Part shown: piece by piece, positions 806 to 39,394 of the stretch
Layout: each line of letters begins with the position of its first letter
How positions within the stretch are numbered: the stretch's first letter is position 1
Assembly (NCBI GenBank): GCA_016183325.1
Contig: JACPEV010000003.1
Location: forward strand, 82,000 to 145,999
DNA length: 64,000 bases
Reading direction: 5' to 3'
DNA from: Candidatus Curtissbacteria bacterium
GTDB taxonomy: Bacteria > Patescibacteriota > Microgenomatia > Curtissbacterales > GWA2-41-24
Notes under the pieces: model-generated
Database searches by the model: none
What the model saw: only the letters and a program-made list of their open reading frames with translations
What the model was told of the DNA's origin: nothing
Made by a program: the position numbers and the translations under genes

Positions 806-1552
806 TCAGTTTTGAAACTTGATTGTGTTGACCATTTGCATAAAGATTTGATCCCATTTCTCTTGTTCTTCTTTTGAACCTCCTCGGGACACAAATCCCA
901 AAATTTTACCATTAAAGGTTACATCGACCTTGTGATAATAAAAAATATCATGACCCCCTTCGGGATCTGTACCATCAACCACATATTCGATGGCAGGATT
1001 GCCATCTATCGTTAGATTTCTGATTTTGTAAAGAGGCGCTTTTGCAGCATGAAATTCCTCAATTTTTTCTCCTGGCTCTAAATTTAGTATTTTATAATAT
1101 TCATCGTAATTTTCTGTTACGCTAAAGCCGATTACTCCCCCAACCTTAGAATTATCGTTGGGCATAAATTGTAAAAACGCACCGCCGGTAGTTAAGGACT
1201 GTGGATGTTTAAAGCAGAATTTATCTTGAGAGTCTTTATAAGTAATCCAGTTTGCTGTGCCAGGAGTATTCCTTGGCTCGCATTCAAAATCTTCAATTTT
1301 ACTTTGGTGGTCTGTTTTGTCGGTTTGACGACTTGACGTTGGCTGTACAGAAGGTGATGGGTCAATAGTTTCATCTCTTGCGTTTCTAATGAGGAAGCTG
1401 TTGAAGAAGAGAGTGCCGGCGACAACAAGACAAATTATTGCAAGGCCGATTAGAACAGGTGGGGTTAGATAGCCCCTACTCGCCGTGAAGCGGCGAAGCG
1501 GGCCGGTTTTAGTATTCGGGGGAATCTGATAAGAAAACCAGGCGCGCCGCAT
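806..1552 (-). CDS. membrane-anchored/secreted hypothetical protein, paralog 2 of the MRRxxYLTPPVLIGL family
   Basis: ORF track frame; the likely start is the internal Met (MRRAWF…) because the 5' region including the N-terminus is duplicated at 1-290; single N-terminal TM helix. Confidence 0.5.
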   Translation of the reverse strand: MRRAWFSYQIPPNTKTGPLRRFTASRGYLTPPVLIGLAIICLVVAGTLFFNSFLIRNARDETIDPSPSVQPTSSRQTDKTDHQSKIEDFECEPRNTPGTANWITYKDSQDKFCFKHPQSLTTGGAFLQFMPNDNSKVGGVIGFSVTENYDEYYKILNLEPGEKIEEFHAAKAPLYKIRNLTIDGNPAIEYVVDGTDPEGGHDIFYYHKVDVTFNGKILGFVSRGGSKEEQEKWDQIFMQMVNTIKFQN

Positions 1553-1680
1553 AGTTTTATCATTCCACTTTTTGCTTTTTAAAACAAACTCTCGGTGGGT
1601 AATGGGTGGCATACCAAAATCACGCAATTGCGCGAAATTGGTATGCAGAGGAAGTTTAGGGAATGTATACAAATATCTGA

Positions 1681-1816
1681 CGATCGTCAAGAAATTGTAT
1701 AGATTGAATTTATGAAAGAAAAAGTTTTTATTGCGTGTGTTTTTTGATCGATCGTCAAGAAATTGTATAGATTGAATTTATGAAAGAAAAAGTTTTTATT
1801 GCGTGTGTTTTTTGAT
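1681..1816. repeat. tandem duplication (2 x 68 bp) of the unit at 409-476; the distal copy overlaps the doc stop codon
   Basis: Direct reading: cgatcgtcaagaaattgtatagattgaatttatgaaagaaaaagtttttattgcgtgtgttttttgat appears twice. Confidence 0.85.
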
Positions 1817-2176
1817 CCAATCGGCGATTTGGTCTAGCGACGGCTTTTCGTTTTCTGCCCATAAGGCAAAATCCACTTTTTCTCTTTGTGTTGCCACAAG
1901 TTCGTAGCCATTTAAATACAAAAAATATTCTAAAGTTCCCAGTGCGGTTCTTTTGTTTCCATCGATAAATGGATGATTTGATGAAAGTGATTGAATAAGG
2001 GCTGCAGCTTTTAGAAAAATGTCGGGATAGAGATCTTCTCCACCAAAAGTAGCTTGAGGCCGACCTAGCGCTGACGATAAGAGATCCCAATCTCGAACAC
2101 CTTGAGAACCACCAGTTTTTTCTGTAACACGAAGATGGATGGCGACGACTTCGTCTAGGGTGGGATATTTGATCAC
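1796..2176 (-). CDS. doc: Doc (death-on-curing) toxin, Fic/Doc family
   Basis: Fic/Doc motif HPFIDGNKRTA; 126 aa; overlaps the upstream antitoxin by 4 bp. Confidence 0.85.
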   Translation of the reverse strand: MIKYPTLDEVVAIHLRVTEKTGGSQGVRDWDLLSSALGRPQATFGGEDLYPDIFLKAAALIQSLSSNHPFIDGNKRTALGTLEYFLYLNGYELVATQREKVDFALWAENEKPSLDQIADWIKKHTQ

Positions 2177-29343: not shown

Positions 29344-29718
29344 TTAAATAATTTTTAGATCATTAATCTTCTCAAAATCTTTTAGATTCAAAGTTGATAA
29401 AAGTAAAGAATGTTTGATCGCTGTGGCCGCAATGATAGCATCAATTAGTGAAACTCCTTGATTATGAACTTTAATGTATCCCGCTTTTTTAGATATGTCC
29501 GGTGACAATGAAATTATTTGCAAACCGGAAAGTGTTCGCTCTACAGTTTTTTTGACTTCAATTTTCTCCCAGATACTTTTTCCTGCATAAAGTTCTGTGT
29601 GGGTAATTATAGAAATAAAAAGCTCTTCATCCGTTAGTTTATAAAATAGACTGTTTTCTTTATCCGGTCGACGAAGGAAATCTATGACAACGGAAGTATC
29701 CAGAAGAAGTCTCTTCAC
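29344..29718 (-). CDS. vapC: PIN-domain toxin VapC
   Basis: LLDTSVVIDFL… PIN. Confidence 0.8.
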   Translation of the reverse strand: MKRLLLDTSVVIDFLRRPDKENSLFYKLTDEELFISIITHTELYAGKSIWEKIEVKKTVERTLSGLQIISLSPDISKKAGYIKVHNQGVSLIDAIIAATAIKHSLLLSTLNLKDFEKINDLKII

Positions 29719-29990
29719 GGATTTTGTCTTTTGAGTCTATCTTCAATTTCTTCTCTATTTCTTTTGATTTCTTCCAAATCTATGTCTACAGGTTTCATTT
29801 TAAGTAAACTTTTCTTCCATTCTTGTTTATCTCTAATCTTTTCTTCCTCTATTGGTTCGGCAATAATCTTTCCGTTGTCTGTCGAGACTTTAAGCCAAAA
29901 ATCGCTGGAGAGGCCGATAGATTCTCTAATCTTTTTGGGAATAGTTATTTGCCCCTTGCTGAATGATTTGACGAATCTGACTACGTCCAT
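29715..29990 (-). CDS. AbrB/MazE-family antitoxin
   Basis: KGQITIPKKIRESIGL; start probably at the internal Met. Confidence 0.7.
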   Translation of the reverse strand: MDVVRFVKSFSKGQITIPKKIRESIGLSSDFWLKVSTDNGKIIAEPIEEEKIRDKQEWKKSLLKMKPVDIDLEEIKRNREEIEDRLKRQNP

Positions 29991-30097
29991 ACTGAATTTC
30001 AGTATATATTGAAATTGTTCAAATTGCAAGGTTTTTGTAAATTTTGAGGAAAATTGACAACGTCCTACAATAAGCTATACGCTTAAAATAGCTGCCA

Positions 30098-31093
30098 ATG
30101 AAAAAAGGGTTCGCCCAATTTGTCCCTTTAGTTGCTATTGCCTTTGCCATTTTAATTGGCCTATCCATCATCAGTGCCGACAAAACCACCAACAATCAAG
30201 ACAACATCTTAAGCAGCTCCGATAAAGACAATGGTTCCTCGGGCTCCGGCTCATCTGGCTCGGGTTCGTCTGACTCAGGCTCCTCGGGATCTAGCGACTC
30301 GGATTCATCAGATAACCCATCCACTTCTACCTCCAGTGGTCCTGGCTCAGCCGACACCACCCGAATCGAATCCAATACAGGCGACACCAGAACCAGAATC
30401 GAAACCAGGCCCGGCGAAACCAGAATTGAAACTAGAAACGAACAGGGCCGTTTCGAAACAAGGTTAAAAGACGATAAAGAAGAAACCAAAATCAGAACCG
30501 GTAATTTGAGAATTGAATTGAAAAGAGAAGGCGACAAAATTGTCACCACGGTTAAAAATGAAAACGACGAAGAAGTTGAGCTGGAAGATGAAGAAACAGA
30601 CGAACTTTTAGAGGATGCCTCCGCCAAGCTGGAAGTCGATGGCGTCAAATTTGCCACCGATTCTGGACGTCTGGACATTATTCAAAATGGCCGGCGCGTC
30701 AGAATTAATTTCCCGCTTTCTGTCAATCCGACAACCGGCGAACTTTTTGTCACAACCCCTGCAGGCGAAAAAGTAGTCGCCATCTTGCCGGATACTGCTA
30801 TCCAAAATATGCTCTCGGCCGGTATTTTGACTAGAGTCGAGCCGGAGCCAGAACCCTTACCCTCCCCATCACCGGGTGCCACCGAGTCAGCCACTGTCGT
30901 AGAAACCGGCATTGAGCTCACCCAACTTAACAATCAGCCGGTCTATATCATTAGCGGAATCAAGAATAAAAGCTTCCTAGGACTCGTGCCTGTAGATCTT
31001 AAACTAAAAGTTGTGGTCTCAGCCCAAAACGGCCAAGTTTTACAAACCCGTCAGGGCCTCTTGACAAGACTTCTCGATTTCTTCTCGATTTGA
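30098..31093 (+). CDS. secreted Ser/Gly-rich repeat protein
   Basis: Signal peptide, SSGSGSSGSGSS tract, TRIETR-type repeats. Confidence 0.5.
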   Translation: MKKGFAQFVPLVAIAFAILIGLSIISADKTTNNQDNILSSSDKDNGSSGSGSSGSGSSDSGSSGSSDSDSSDNPSTSTSSGPGSADTTRIESNTGDTRTRIETRPGETRIETRNEQGRFETRLKDDKEETKIRTGNLRIELKREGDKIVTTVKNENDEEVELEDEETDELLEDASAKLEVDGVKFATDSGRLDIIQNGRRVRINFPLSVNPTTGELFVTTPAGEKVVAILPDTAIQNMLSAGILTRVEPEPEPLPSPSPGATESATVVETGIELTQLNNQPVYIISGIKNKSFLGLVPVDLKLKVVVSAQNGQVLQTRQGLLTRLLDFFSI

Positions 31094-32618: not shown

Positions 32619-32897
32619 ATGAAAATATTTCAAGAACCTGACAAAAGACTTCATCTGGTAAGTTCAACGGTAAAGAATTTTGATGAAGCTAAAAAAATAA
32701 CCCAAGAGCTCGTTGAGGTGACAAGAGGTTTGGATAGACCTTATAAACTCTGGATTGGGATGGCTGCTGTCCAAATTGGGTACAAAAAGAGAATAATTTT
32801 GTACAAGAAGGGTATCCTCAGGCTACGCCTTCGGCGAGTACGTAATTATTCAATTCACCCACGGGTAAAAACCCGTGGTACTCTTGAACAATTATAG
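32619..32897 (+). pseudogene. def: peptide deformylase N-terminal fragment (truncated def)
   Basis: First ~65 aa align to the PDF N-terminus including G(M/L)AAVQ(I/V)G motif 1; the EGCLS and HExxH motifs are absent. Confidence 0.55.
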
Positions 32898-33006
32898 ACC
32901 ATATTGATGGAATACTAATATCAGATATAGGGAAAAAGGTTTTTTAGAGTTCGAAAATCGGCCCCAAATTGATTTTTCCCATTAATCTTTCTGCTAGAAT
33001 GGCTTC

Positions 33007-33291: not shown

Positions 33292-33321
33292 TTTTTGTGT
33301 TACAATGTACTACAATTTATA

Positions 33322-33648
33322 ATGTCAAAATCAAGTGTCGCAAAAATTGATATTAATGTTGACACTTTGATTGTTGAAGAAGACAGGCTAGGGCATATTG
33401 CAAAGCATGGGGTGACTTTAAAGGAAATTTTAGAAATTATTTCGCAAGATTACATTTATATCGAAGGTAAACACGGACGTTGGTTATTGATAGGCAAGAC
33501 GAAAATGGGGCGTTTCCTAACAGTTGTTGTTGGCTCACGTCCAGAGAAAAACACACGTGGTTTAGTAACTGCGAGACCATCAAGCAGAGAAGAGAGAAGC
33601 TTTTATAAGGAGTTTACTTTACAATATGAGTATGACAAAATCAATTAA
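33322..33648 (+). CDS. brnT: BrnT-family (DUF497) toxin
   Basis: AKHGVTLKEI… and a C-terminus matching the BrnT pattern. Confidence 0.65.
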   Translation: MSKSSVAKIDINVDTLIVEEDRLGHIAKHGVTLKEILEIISQDYIYIEGKHGRWLLIGKTKMGRFLTVVVGSRPEKNTRGLVTARPSSREERSFYKEFTLQYEYDKIN

Positions 33649-33928
33649 AGTTAAAAATATTAAAAATGGTGGAATCAAACCAATTTCACCATTTAAAACT
33701 TTGGAGGAGGAAGCTAATTTTTGGGACACCCATTCGGCGGTTGATCAGATTAACAAGGGTACTTTAGTCGGTTTCCATCAAGCTAATAAGACTAAAACTT
33801 TAACTATTCGTGTCCAACCCGAGGATTTGCAATCTTTACGCGAATTGGCTTTCAAGCAAGGTATTGGTCCAACTACGCTCGCTCGTATGTGGTTACTTGA
33901 AAAACTCCACGAATCCAAAACGAAATAA
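33626..33928 (+). CDS. brnA: BrnA antitoxin
   Basis: EEEANFWDTHSAVD hallmark plus a C-terminal RHH. Confidence 0.75.
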   Translation: MSMTKSIKVKNIKNGGIKPISPFKTLEEEANFWDTHSAVDQINKGTLVGFHQANKTKTLTIRVQPEDLQSLRELAFKQGIGPTTLARMWLLEKLHESKTK

Positions 33929-33970
33929 GTTGGAAAATCGTCCCGAGTTTTTCTGATATAATTTCCTCTT

Positions 33971-34081: not shown

Positions 34082-34125
34082 TTTGACGATTATTGTATAA
34101 TCTTGTAACCTAAAAGAAGGTTTAA

Positions 34126-34317
34126 ATGTCTAAAGTTGATCTGAGAAAGATTCTAAAAAAACATAAATCAGGATGGTTGGCATTAACTGCGGACAACAAG
34201 AAAGAAGTGGCTTCCGCAAAGACTCTGCGAGAGGTGCTTTCTCGCGCAAGGGCGAAAGGTGTTGAGAGGCCAAGCGTTTTAAAGGTGCCTAAATTGGATT
34301 CTTACTATGTCGGTTAA
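34126..34317 (+). CDS. small DUF5678-like protein
   Basis: Good SD (aagaagg); 63 aa; stop overlaps the next start (TAATG). Confidence 0.45.
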   Translation: MSKVDLRKILKKHKSGWLALTADNKKEVASAKTLREVLSRARAKGVERPSVLKVPKLDSYYVG

Positions 34318-34772
34318 TGGATTTTGATTATGCATTAGTTACCGACTGGCCCAGACATAAACCCCGCCAGCGTTATCTTCCCTGGATAAATATAGGTATT
34401 AGAAAGATTGGGAAAGAAAAAACTATTTGGCCATTAGGACTAGTTGATTCCGGGGCCGATCTAACTATAGTTGATAGAGAAATTGGTGACGAGCTGGGTT
34501 TCGATTTCAAAAAGGCTAGAAAAAATTTTATTACCGGTTTTGGTGGAGCTAAAGTAGAAGTTTTATTGACAGAGGCAGAATATGTTATTGATGACAATAA
34601 AGGCAAACGTCCAATAATTTATCGTGATCTCATTGGATTTACAAAAGGTCAATTTCCTCTCTCACATCCGCAACAAACTGCTATATTTGGAACTATTGGT
34701 TTATTTAGGAATGTTCACGTAGAGTTTGATTTCCCAAGAAATATCCATATAGAAAAATTCAGAATTAGATAA
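34317..34772 (+). CDS. retropepsin-like aspartic protease
   Basis: Active-site LVDSGADLTIV (D-S/T-G-A). Confidence 0.7.
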   Translation: MDFDYALVTDWPRHKPRQRYLPWINIGIRKIGKEKTIWPLGLVDSGADLTIVDREIGDELGFDFKKARKNFITGFGGAKVEVLLTEAEYVIDDNKGKRPIIYRDLIGFTKGQFPLSHPQQTAIFGTIGLFRNVHVEFDFPRNIHIEKFRIR

Positions 34773-34801
34773 AAATTAGTTCGAAAATCGTCCCGACTGA
34801 T

Positions 34802-35278
34802 TTATTGTTGAAATGTAATTAAAATGCTGTCTTCATCCTCAATTTTTTTATCCAACAGATCAGGTTCTTCCCGGCCATTTAAATAAAACTTTAGAGAGCT
34901 GCTGGAACCATTGCAAAAAGTTTCTCCGTCACCGGTTGTAAGACAATCTTTGGTTAACTTCATCGGAAGAGTTTTAAAAAAATCGTCCCAGGTGATTCCA
35001 TCTTTTTTGACATGAACTATTGTTGGACTATCAGCCGAAAGATAAACATCGGGTGATCTTTGGTGATATTTGGGACTTTTAAAATTTCTGATTATTCCAT
35101 TTGTGTTGATTTGAAACGAGGCCTCAATATTGACCTCTTGAATTTCGGGCGATGAAGAAGGCGAAAATGCAAGAATTGGAGATGATGATGGTGCTAACGG
35201 ATTGGGAGTTGTTCTTAAGAAAAGTATTGAGCCGACAGAAAGAAGTATTATTGCAATTGTAAAAAAAATAGCTCGCAC
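34802..35278 (-). CDS. secreted hypothetical protein
   Basis: Signal peptide. Confidence 0.45.
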   Translation of the reverse strand: MRAIFFTIAIILLSVGSILFLRTTPNPLAPSSSPILAFSPSSSPEIQEVNIEASFQINTNGIIRNFKSPKYHQRSPDVYLSADSPTIVHVKKDGITWDDFFKTLPMKLTKDCLTTGDGETFCNGSSSSLKFYLNGREEPDLLDKKIEDEDSILITFQQ

Positions 35279-35348: not shown

Positions 35349-36083
35349 ATGGCTCAAAGTTTCAAATTTCAAAAGGGCACCGCGTGGCTCTGGCCACTTG
35401 TCGTTTTGATAATTACATTCGGCGCTTTTTACTTTAAACCCTGGCAGACAAAACCGACAGAAACCATCTCTGTTTCCGCAACTGGCAAAGCCCAAGTTAC
35501 TCCAAATGTTGCCACAATTACCGCAACCATTGAATCTAAAAATCCAAATCTAGAACAAGCCAGAAAAGAAAACGAGCTAAAGGTCAGCATGCTAATCTCC
35601 GCTCTCAAAAATCTCGGCGTTGAGGAAAAAGACATCAAAACTCAGCATATTTCAGGCGGCCCCGGCTATGAAATTATGATCTATCCCCCAAGAAAACCAA
35701 CCACCAACCAATTCACCACAAGTCTTGAAGTCAAAATCAGAAACTTTGAAAATACCGATGAGATTATTGCAGCAATGACCCAAAATGGAGCCACCAATCT
35801 TTATGGTCCCAATTTAACTGTTGATGAAGCACTTCAGGAAGAAGGCAAATCCAAGGCTCGCGAAAACGCTGTCAATGAAGCTCGCAAAAAGGGTGAACAA
35901 CTGGCCAAACTTTCCGGCAGGAAACTTGGTAAAGCGGTCAAAATCTCAGAGCAAGGTGATTATGGTTTCCCTATCCCCATCTACGCCCAATCTGAAGCTG
36001 ATCTTCGCCAAAAAGCCAACCAAATCCAACCCGGTCAAAACGATGTCACCATTACCCTCCAAGTCGACTTCGAACTCAAGTAG
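35349..36083 (+). CDS. SIMPL-domain (DUF541/YggE-like) protein
   Basis: Length and sequence pattern. Confidence 0.7.
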   Translation: MAQSFKFQKGTAWLWPLVVLIITFGAFYFKPWQTKPTETISVSATGKAQVTPNVATITATIESKNPNLEQARKENELKVSMLISALKNLGVEEKDIKTQHISGGPGYEIMIYPPRKPTTNQFTTSLEVKIRNFENTDEIIAAMTQNGATNLYGPNLTVDEALQEEGKSKARENAVNEARKKGEQLAKLSGRKLGKAVKISEQGDYGFPIPIYAQSEADLRQKANQIQPGQNDVTITLQVDFELK

Positions 36084-38891: not shown

Positions 38892-39116
38892 TTATTTCAA
38901 CTCTTCAAGCTCTTCATCAGTCAACTTGGCTTGATTAATTATCTTCCTTAAAGTCCCAACAGGAATAGGCCCAGGGTGAACTGCTACCTGAGTCCATCTA
39001 CCATCAAGATGAGTAAGTCTGACATGACTCCCTCTACCTTTAGTCTCTACAAATCCAATTTTTGTAAGAAATCTTATTAATTGTTTTGCTTTTACATTGC
39101 GCCGCAGCTTACTCAT
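38892..39116 (-). CDS. hicA: HicA mRNA-interferase toxin
   Basis: YcfA/HicA pattern (KxxIRFL…GSHVRLTH). Confidence 0.8.
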   Translation of the reverse strand: MSKLRRNVKAKQLIRFLTKIGFVETKGRGSHVRLTHLDGRWTQVAVHPGPIPVGTLRKIINQAKLTDEELEELK

Positions 39117-39394
39117 GCAAAAGTAAGCCTGGCACCAGCTGGAGCTTTAACTTGTGCAGTAGTCACTATACCCTTTTTGAGATTATCGACTGGGACTTCT
39201 TTACCTTCTTCCACTAAAGACTCGACTGCCAACTCAATACCGTCTTTTATGCTTTTTAAAACTTCCTCGACAGAGTTTCCCCAGTCGGCAACACCCAAAG
39301 TCGGGCAATAGGCATTGTAGACCGTCCTTTTGCCCTGCTTTTCCGGCTCAATAATAATGCGATAATTTAAAACTTGCGTTTGCATGGCAAACAT
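39113..39394 (-). CDS. hicB: HicB antitoxin
   Basis: HicB/UPF0150 N-terminus; 4-bp overlap with hicA. Confidence 0.75.
   Translation of the reverse strand: MFAMQTQVLNYRIIIEPEKQGKRTVYNAYCPTLGVADWGNSVEEVLKSIKDGIELAVESLVEEGKEVPVDNLKKGIVTTAQVKAPAGARLTFA

Follow-up and report, generated by a model that had tools for sequence, protein, structure and literature searches.

A gene for a DUF5678 protein overlapping a retropepsin-like aspartic protease gene: a two-gene cassette in Candidatus Curtissbacteria and distant bacteria

We analyzed a stretch of 64,000 nucleotides from a Candidatus Curtissbacteria genome (GenBank assembly GCA_016183325.1, contig JACPEV010000003.1, positions 82,000 to 145,999 of the forward strand; hereafter the window), with the focus on two overlapping genes that encode a 63-aa protein of the DUF5678 family and a 151-aa retropepsin-like aspartic protease. 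Judged from sequence comparison, the pair is probably a two-gene cassette of the protease/regulator or toxin-antitoxin (TA)-like kind. The comparative signal is strong: Starting from the protease, 16 distinct loci were reached, and in each of them the small gene (59-71 aa, apart from a longer call in L016) was located directly upstream of the protease gene on the same strand. As to function, the reading that we favor, with a probability of roughly 45%, has the DUF5678 protein keep a cytoplasmic protease in check, probably via its conserved C-terminal tail, in a TA-like manner and analogous to the regulation of the protease of human immunodeficiency virus (HIV) by the p6* peptide. Both window proteins are 100% identical to the NCBI entries HYU92_01270 and HYU92_01275, which are annotated as hypothetical proteins of a Candidatus Curtissbacteria metagenome-assembled genome (MAG) of the candidate phyla radiation (CPR).

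Gene junction and conservation of the pair

A Shine-Dalgarno-like GAAGG is located 5 bases 5′ of the ATG of the small gene, and the stop codon TAA of this gene (34315-34317) shares one A with the start codon ATG of the protease gene (34317-34319; ggtTAATGgat). With no Shine-Dalgarno sequence in front of it and a start codon that reaches into the stop codon of the small gene, the protease gene is translationally coupled to the latter, whereby the protease would be made only after, and at most in the amount of, its partner. A first-pass annotation of the window had already described the 63-aa open reading frame (ORF) with its ribosome binding site, the TAATG overlap with a 151-aa ORF and the active-site sequence LVDSGAD in the latter, and all of these were found as described. 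It had also made the idea of a module depend on the two genes being co-conserved elsewhere, and our gene-neighborhood survey found the pair kept in every protease-side locus, from CPR bacteria to Bacteroidota and Anaerolineae and in unrelated neighborhoods.

The 16 protease-side loci comprise the window, the close relatives L001, L002 and L004-L008, and the distant loci L009-L016. The close loci belong to other Curtissbacteria, one Roizmanbacteria genome and one Saccharibacteria genome, and the distant loci, with proteases at 21-29% identity, include Parafilimonas terrae (Bacteroidota), one MAG of the Anaerolineae and several unassigned metagenome contigs. In the distant loci, the small gene overlaps the protease start in eight of eight cases and was called with a length of 59-71 aa in seven; in L016 it was called at 175 aa, and its resemblance to the other partners is confined to the C-terminal end. 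The junction in most loci is a 1-nt overlap (TAATG or TGATG) or a 4-nt overlap (ATGA). Exceptions are gaps of at most 3 nt in L002 and L032-L034 and a longer overlap in L016, so that in every locus examined the genes either overlap or are separated by no more than 3 nt.

Both proteins diverge together, as their pairwise distances correlate with r = 0.89 (19 loci). Purifying selection acts on both genes (pN ~0.25, pS ~0.75), the median dN/dS being 0.17 in the case of the small gene and 0.24 in that of the protease gene. The flanking genes vary and include dprA (L001, L038), genes for ParE and SecA (L002), type IX secretion system or PKD genes (L011, L015), and an integrase gene with a helix-turn-helix (HTH) gene (L012). 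Because of these different flanks, the pair can be regarded as an autonomous cassette. Its distribution is patchy, with a different neighborhood in each genome.

Downstream of the pair, a SIMPL/DUF541 gene is common to the window (35349-36083) and L005 (4092-4826). Therefore, the cassette occupies a roughly syntenic site in these two Curtissbacteria; in L001 and L038, the site adjoins dprA.

These data also bear on the explanation that a retroelement or another mobile element (gag-pro-like) left the pair behind as a remnant, or that two unrelated small ORFs are adjacent by chance. The resemblance of the protease to the Pfam families RVP and gag-asp_proteas fits a retroelement origin. However, neither a reverse transcriptase nor repeats flank the pair in the 16 loci (the L012 flank does hold the integrase gene), both ORFs are under purifying selection, and the adjacency recurs across phyla even where the proteases share only 21-29% identity. 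We consider this explanation very improbable and, given the conservation data, effectively refuted.

In the close family, a conserved element upstream of the small gene accompanies the pair (Table 1). An alignment of more than 20 close-family loci gave the pattern TTGAC-N7/8-TATAAT-N4-TAACCTA(A/G)AAGGAG-N5-7-ATG, which travels with the pair into different neighborhoods; TATAAT is followed by N4 and then by the conserved TAACCTAAAAGGAG leader (among others in L001, L002, L005, L006 and L019-L030). The spacing of N7/8 between TTGAC and TATAAT is far below the 17 nt that are the norm for sigma-70 promoters and thus not canonical, and a scan with the sigma-70 consensus called no promoter in this region of the window. 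The element may serve as an operator or as a CPR promoter of an unusual type.

Features of the two proteins

The small protein matches Pfam DUF5678 (PF18929) with 27.5 bits (E 2.8e-6; gathering cut-off 23.2), the match spanning residues 9-56 and profile positions 2-48 of 49. It has 32 close homologues with 63-84% identity. DUF5678 was also matched by 11 of 12 small partner proteins tested from other loci; these partners align with each other and match no Pfam family besides DUF5678. They share a W-[VL]-A-L strand, a helix start [IV]-[AS]-x-G-x-T-x-x-E-A, and a C-terminal tail [KR]-[VI]-P-x4-5-[YF]-[IV]-[GLF] which ends exactly at the stop codon and is kept across phyla. An AlphaFold2 (AF2) model of the window protein contains a helix (6-12), two strands (16-20 and 27-31), a second helix (34-43), a third strand (50-54) and a low-confidence tail (55-63), from which the protein is predicted, with moderate confidence, to consist of a small alpha/beta core with a flexible tail at its C-terminal end.

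In the 151-aa protein, LVDSGAD occupies residues 42-48 with Asp44 as catalytic residue, followed by the flap G74-F-G-G77 and the C-terminal motif A-I-F-G-T-I-G-L-F-R (residues 122-131). An N-terminal extension of about 18 aa (M-x-F-x-Y...) precedes an R-x-x-x-P-W strand. Based on these motifs and the profile searches described below, the protein is best classified as a divergent retropepsin-like aspartic protease of clan AA, belonging to a CPR sub-family. Asp44 is present in all 20 close and in 60 of 61 distant relatives, G46 and G125 in all 61 distant relatives, and the relatives share the signatures D-[ST]-G-[AS]-[DE], G-x-G-G in the flap and, at the C-terminus, [ILV]-[LF]-G-x-x-G-F-F. The conservation of the catalytic residues argues for a working protease. 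The sequence R-P-x-[IV]-P-[IV] with the subsequent A-L-[LV]-D-[ST]-G-A-D resembles RPLVTIKI...ALLDTGAD of HIV protease. As retropepsins with one catalytic Asp per chain are established to act as dimers, the window protease is presumably homodimeric. Direct reading of the sequences revealed neither a signal peptide nor a hydrophobic segment in either protein, and both are therefore presumably cytoplasmic.

Among the relatives, P0078 from the representative library (40% identity to the window protease) has Asn instead of the catalytic Asp (LINSGAD) and may be a pseudo-protease.

The window protease itself stays below the threshold of every curated protease model. Its sub-threshold matches to Asp_protease_2 (PF13650; 16.3 vs 24.3 bits) and RVP (PF00077; 14.5 vs 20.7 bits) are centered on the DSG motif, and no match at E<=1 was obtained with NCBIfam TIGR03698 (clan_AA_DTGF, AF_0612). 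Searching 1.84 billion representative proteins with a profile of the close-family proteases gave only 6 representatives at E<=1e-30 and, at E<=1e-3, roughly 250 stand-alone proteins with lengths of 130-160 aa. In an alignment of 61 distant relatives from this search, 52 members match Asp_protease_2 (E<=0.01), 36 gag-asp_proteas and 16 TIGR03698 (E<=0.01). The profile of this alignment matched Ddi1, the proteases of feline immunodeficiency virus (FIV), Rous sarcoma virus (RSV) and HIV, and ApRick in the PDB with E 3e-6 to 3e-3, with Ddi1 and FIV protease at 3e-6. Also, the best PDB matches in a Foldseek search with the AF2 model of the window protease were RSV protease, ApRick and FIV protease; these are weak (E 6e-3 to 2e-2, TM score 0.35-0.53) and come from a model of moderate quality (predicted local distance difference test, pLDDT, 64.7; below 50 in the C-terminal third).

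The two names given by the first-pass annotation, DUF5678-like and retropepsin-like, are thus upheld, the former by the Pfam match and the latter by motifs and by the profile matches of the relatives of a sub-threshold window protein. Stand-alone prokaryotic retropepsin-like proteins (PF13650; TIGR03698) are, like the window protease, single-domain proteins of about 140-150 aa with D-[ST]-G-A, a G-x-G-G flap and a C-terminal hhG..GFF. In contrast to these, the window protease is divergent, falls below every curated threshold and is N-terminally extended by about 18 aa. As to DUF5678, the window protein and the 11 partners are members of a Pfam family to which no function is assigned.

Function of the pair and comparison with known systems

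According to the favored reading, the DUF5678 protein would bind the protease and hold it inactive. Most likely, its C-terminal tail with the free carboxylate would enter the substrate cleft as a product mimic; alternatively, the tail might disturb the dimer interface of the protease. When the partner is lost or displaced, the freed protease would cleave cellular, perhaps phage, targets, and the pair would then act as a type II TA, addiction or abortive-infection module. The support for a protease/inhibitor or TA role is circumstantial and comprises the TA-rich setting of the window pair, the antitoxin-first-like gene order with coupling, the decay of the protease only, and a weak resemblance to PADLOC models.

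The decay was seen in a metagenome scan seeded with the small protein, which yielded 18 true loci. (A further candidate, L035, was rejected as false positive, the hit being a GGWLALTSDN stretch inside a 619-aa protein.) The protease was intact in 14 of the 18, cut by a contig end in one and destroyed beside an intact small gene in three; the decayed copies of L025, L026, L030 and L038 are listed in Table 1. The reverse pattern, an intact protease gene without the small gene, was found in none of the loci examined. Protease-only decay is what TA logic predicts, a circumstantial point that does not reach statistical significance.

In PADLOC, relatives of the window protease weakly match the B proteins of PDC-M08 and PDC-M52 (best E 3.3e-6), mainly in the active-site region. 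These are candidate defense cassettes that were identified through their location within BREX, DISARM or type I restriction-modification loci. Like the window pair, they are two-gene cassettes (A>>B), and their B models have 118-139 positions.

The pair shares with type II TA systems the small two-gene operon with the putative antidote first, the overlapping frames, the variable contexts, the TA neighbors and the decay of the putative toxin only. Unlike in type II TA systems, no DNA-binding domain was recognized in the DUF5678 partner, judged from a model of moderate confidence, and no plasmid or phage copies were found. Among type II TA modules, IetAS is a rare case with a protease toxin, and we know of no TA family with an aspartic protease as toxin. 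The comparison with HIV-1 p6* concerns the proposed mechanism only. In both cases, a short polypeptide with a conserved C-terminal tail is encoded directly upstream of a retropepsin; p6* immediately precedes the protease on the N-terminal side, and activation of the protease is modulated by the C-terminal tetrapeptide of p6*, a tail that modulates or inhibits the enzyme (PMC8794111, citing Paulus et al. 1999). In contrast to the separate polypeptides of the window pair, p6* is part of the Gag-Pol chain, where it is covalently linked to the protease until autoprocessing releases it, and it has no sequence similarity to the DUF5678 protein.

Several results weigh against the restraint by a TA-like partner. 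The AF2 model of the small protein, which is of moderate confidence, shows no ribbon-helix-helix, HTH or AbrB antitoxin fold (pLDDT 71.5, with only one of five models confident), and Foldseek searches with it against PDB and BFVD gave no significant structural neighbor. All four decay events hit the longer gene; with gene lengths of 192 and 456 nt, this one-sidedness is not significant (p ~0.24), and an assembly error may account for the frameshift in L038. In PADLOC, the window protease itself reaches E 0.024, which is not significant, and four small proteins that were run against the PADLOC models gave no match. Finally, tblastn searches with the L010 pair against plasmids and phages gave no match, and scans of IMG/VR viral contigs with three alignments gave no copy of the module. 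Thus, the behavior of classic plasmid-addiction or phage-borne systems is not seen, and these searches lend no support to an origin from plasmids or phages.

Some of these results suit another explanation, namely that the DUF5678 protein is a positive, obligate subunit (chaperone, dimerization aid, activator or substrate-recruiting adaptor) of a two-subunit regulatory or housekeeping protease. Such an obligate complex fits the strict co-occurrence, the coupling and the correlated divergence equally well, and the missing antitoxin-type DNA-binding fold and the purely chromosomal contexts, with no plasmid or viral copies, speak for it. However, the patchy distribution with a different neighborhood in each genome, the position of the window pair among TA pairs, and the fact that every decayed copy kept the small gene and lost the protease are at odds with it. 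Also, obligate subunits are often found fused, whereas no real fusion of the two proteins was present among those over-long gene calls that were inspected from about 250 representative relatives; the long calls P0237, P0126 and L016 were rejected as fusions because of over-extended N-termini. On this evidence, we rate a positive subunit as unlikely, although it is the main competitor of the favored reading.

An improbable third explanation is that the DUF5678 protein is a substrate or precursor which is cut by the protease, e.g. with release or removal of the tail, to mature a small effector or signaling protein. The tail would be suited for this, as it is conserved, predicted to be flexible and contains aromatic and aliphatic residues of the kind that retropepsins prefer at cleavage sites. 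However, conservation covers the whole 60-aa protein and not just a core or leader part, none of the loci has genes for export, modification or immunity beside the pair, and conserved residues at the extreme C-terminus suit a product-like ligand better than a scissile site.

A more far-reaching form of the restraint reading would see in the pair a phylum-spanning, undescribed TA or abortive-infection family with a cytoplasmic aspartic protease toxin, the first of this catalytic class, and with a separate, prosegment-like inhibitor whose tail plugs the active site as product mimic, i.e. a prokaryotic counterpart of p6*. We regard this form as doubtful. By comparison with the systems considered here, the module appears to belong to no named TA or defense family. 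In our literature search, DUF5678 was mentioned only in passing, in an unrelated plant study, its pairing with a protease was not recorded, and nothing was found that links DUF5678 to a protease or retropepsin-like proteins to TA systems.

The characterized bacterial retropepsin-like proteins work with different partners, and most of them are not cytoplasmic; APRc of Rickettsia is described as membrane-associated. APRc/ApRick and RloA/RimB of Pseudomonas have the clan AA retropepsin architecture with a dimeric active site that is predicted for the window protease (PMC4140852; PMC12239564), and ApRick is among the PDB matches of both the family profile and the protease model. RloA is a secreted protein, while the partner of RimB is RimK, an ATP-grasp enzyme (PMC12239564), and none of APRc/ApRick, RloA and RimB has a DUF5678 partner. 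Neither the window protease nor its relatives matched the Pfam family of APRc, RloA and RimB.

The pairing ties DUF5678 to a specific enzymatic partner across distant phyla and offers a first testable role for this family, namely in the regulation of a retropepsin-like protease. Should the protease turn out to be a toxin or defense effector, the catalytic activities known from TA and abortive-infection effectors would be extended by aspartic proteolysis. With 63 and 151 aa, the pair would also be a compact system for studying how retropepsins are kept inactive, with parallels to the zymogen-like control of retroviral proteases. As CPR genomes are tiny, retention of the cassette suggests a selective value or selfish maintenance.

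Neighborhood of the pair and a recurring motif

Within 10 kb of the pair, the window contains PIN/MazE-type (VapBC-like), BrnT/BrnA and HicA/HicB pairs (Table 1). Since two further TA-type pairs flank the region, this 10-kb stretch can be considered unusually rich in TA modules. The BrnTA pair and a mini-ORF noted in the first-pass annotation were both recovered. A DUF1871-like ORF precedes the BrnT-like ORF, and DUF1871-BrnT-BrnA may form a three-gene unit. The mini-ORF lies next to the DUF5678-protease pair in no other locus and is therefore placed outside the module. In L002, the pair is located about 2.3 kb from a ParE-type toxin gene.

Table 1. Features of the window and decayed protease copies in related loci (coordinates of the latter refer to the respective locus)
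Feature	Position	Strand	Remarks
PIN-domain protein and MazE/AbrB-type partner	29344-30029	-	
Peptide deformylase-like ORF, 92 aa	32619-32897	+	N-terminal ~60 positions only (Pfam 3-63 of 156)
DUF1871-like ORF, 94 aa	33007-33291	+	3 nt upstream of BrnT-like ORF
BrnT-like ORF	33295-33648	+	E 1.9e-6, below Pfam gathering cut-off
CopG/BrnA-type antitoxin	33626-33928	+	at gathering cut-off; 23-nt overlap with BrnT-like ORF
Mini-ORF, 36 aa	33971-34081	+	lysine-rich; C-x2-C-K-P-H-K motif; no family match
Conserved upstream region of the cassette	34083-34125	+	TTGACG 34083-34088, 7-nt spacer, TATAAT 34096-34101, TAACCTAAAA, GAAGG 34116-34120
DUF5678 protein gene, 63 aa	34126-34317	+	ORF and Pfam PF18929
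Retropepsin-like (clan AA) aspartic protease gene, 151 aa	34317-34772	+	ORF and active-site, flap and C-terminal motifs
3′ boundary motif GTTCGAAAATCGTCCCGA	34779-34796	+	starts 7 nt after protease stop; other copies 32949-32966, 33929-33946
HicA and HicB-like partner	38892-39394	-	
L025, protease	1350-1480		internal deletion of residues 22-111 including active site; small gene intact
L026, protease	1692-2131		stop at codon 5 and frameshift; small gene intact
L030, protease	1692-1770		residues 1-124 lost; small gene intact
L038, protease	1603-2057		frameshift near codon 99; small gene intact

The first-pass annotation had also pointed to a motif recurring between the small gene units, which we found as an 18-nt sequence, GTTSGAAAATCGKCCC, in three copies starting at 32949, 33929 and 34779, all on the forward strand (0.11 expected; none of 100 shuffles reached three). 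It can also be written as GTTCGAAAATCGTCC or GTTCGAAAATCG(G/T)CCC, and a fourth copy, comprising only the core AAAATCGTCCC, is located at 34979-34989. Within the window, it stands at the 3′ end of three units in succession: the truncated deformylase fragment, DUF1871-BrnT-BrnA, and the mini-ORF with the DUF5678-protease pair. Two other Curtissbacteria loci carry it directly behind the protease gene or what is left of this gene (L005 at 3455, L030 at 1779), with further copies in L005 at 1761 and in L030 at 624. As the motif is absent from L001-L003, it appears to be specific for Curtissbacteria and no general part of the module. An identification as known RNA, hairpin or terminator was rejected, since there was no Rfam match, the fold z-scores ranged from -1.2 to +1.2 and the terminator scan was empty. 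The motif looks like a lineage-specific element marking a cassette end or an insertion site.

Just upstream of the accessory island, the deformylase-like ORF stops at an inverted repeat with 24-nt arms (32843-32894). Judging from its partial Pfam match, this ORF probably represents a truncated piece of def at the border of an insertion zone. Further upstream, a forward-strand gene (30098-31093) encodes a 331-aa protein with an N-terminal hydrophobic segment, long Ser/Gly/Asp-rich and Thr/Arg/Glu-rich low-complexity repeats and no Pfam match.

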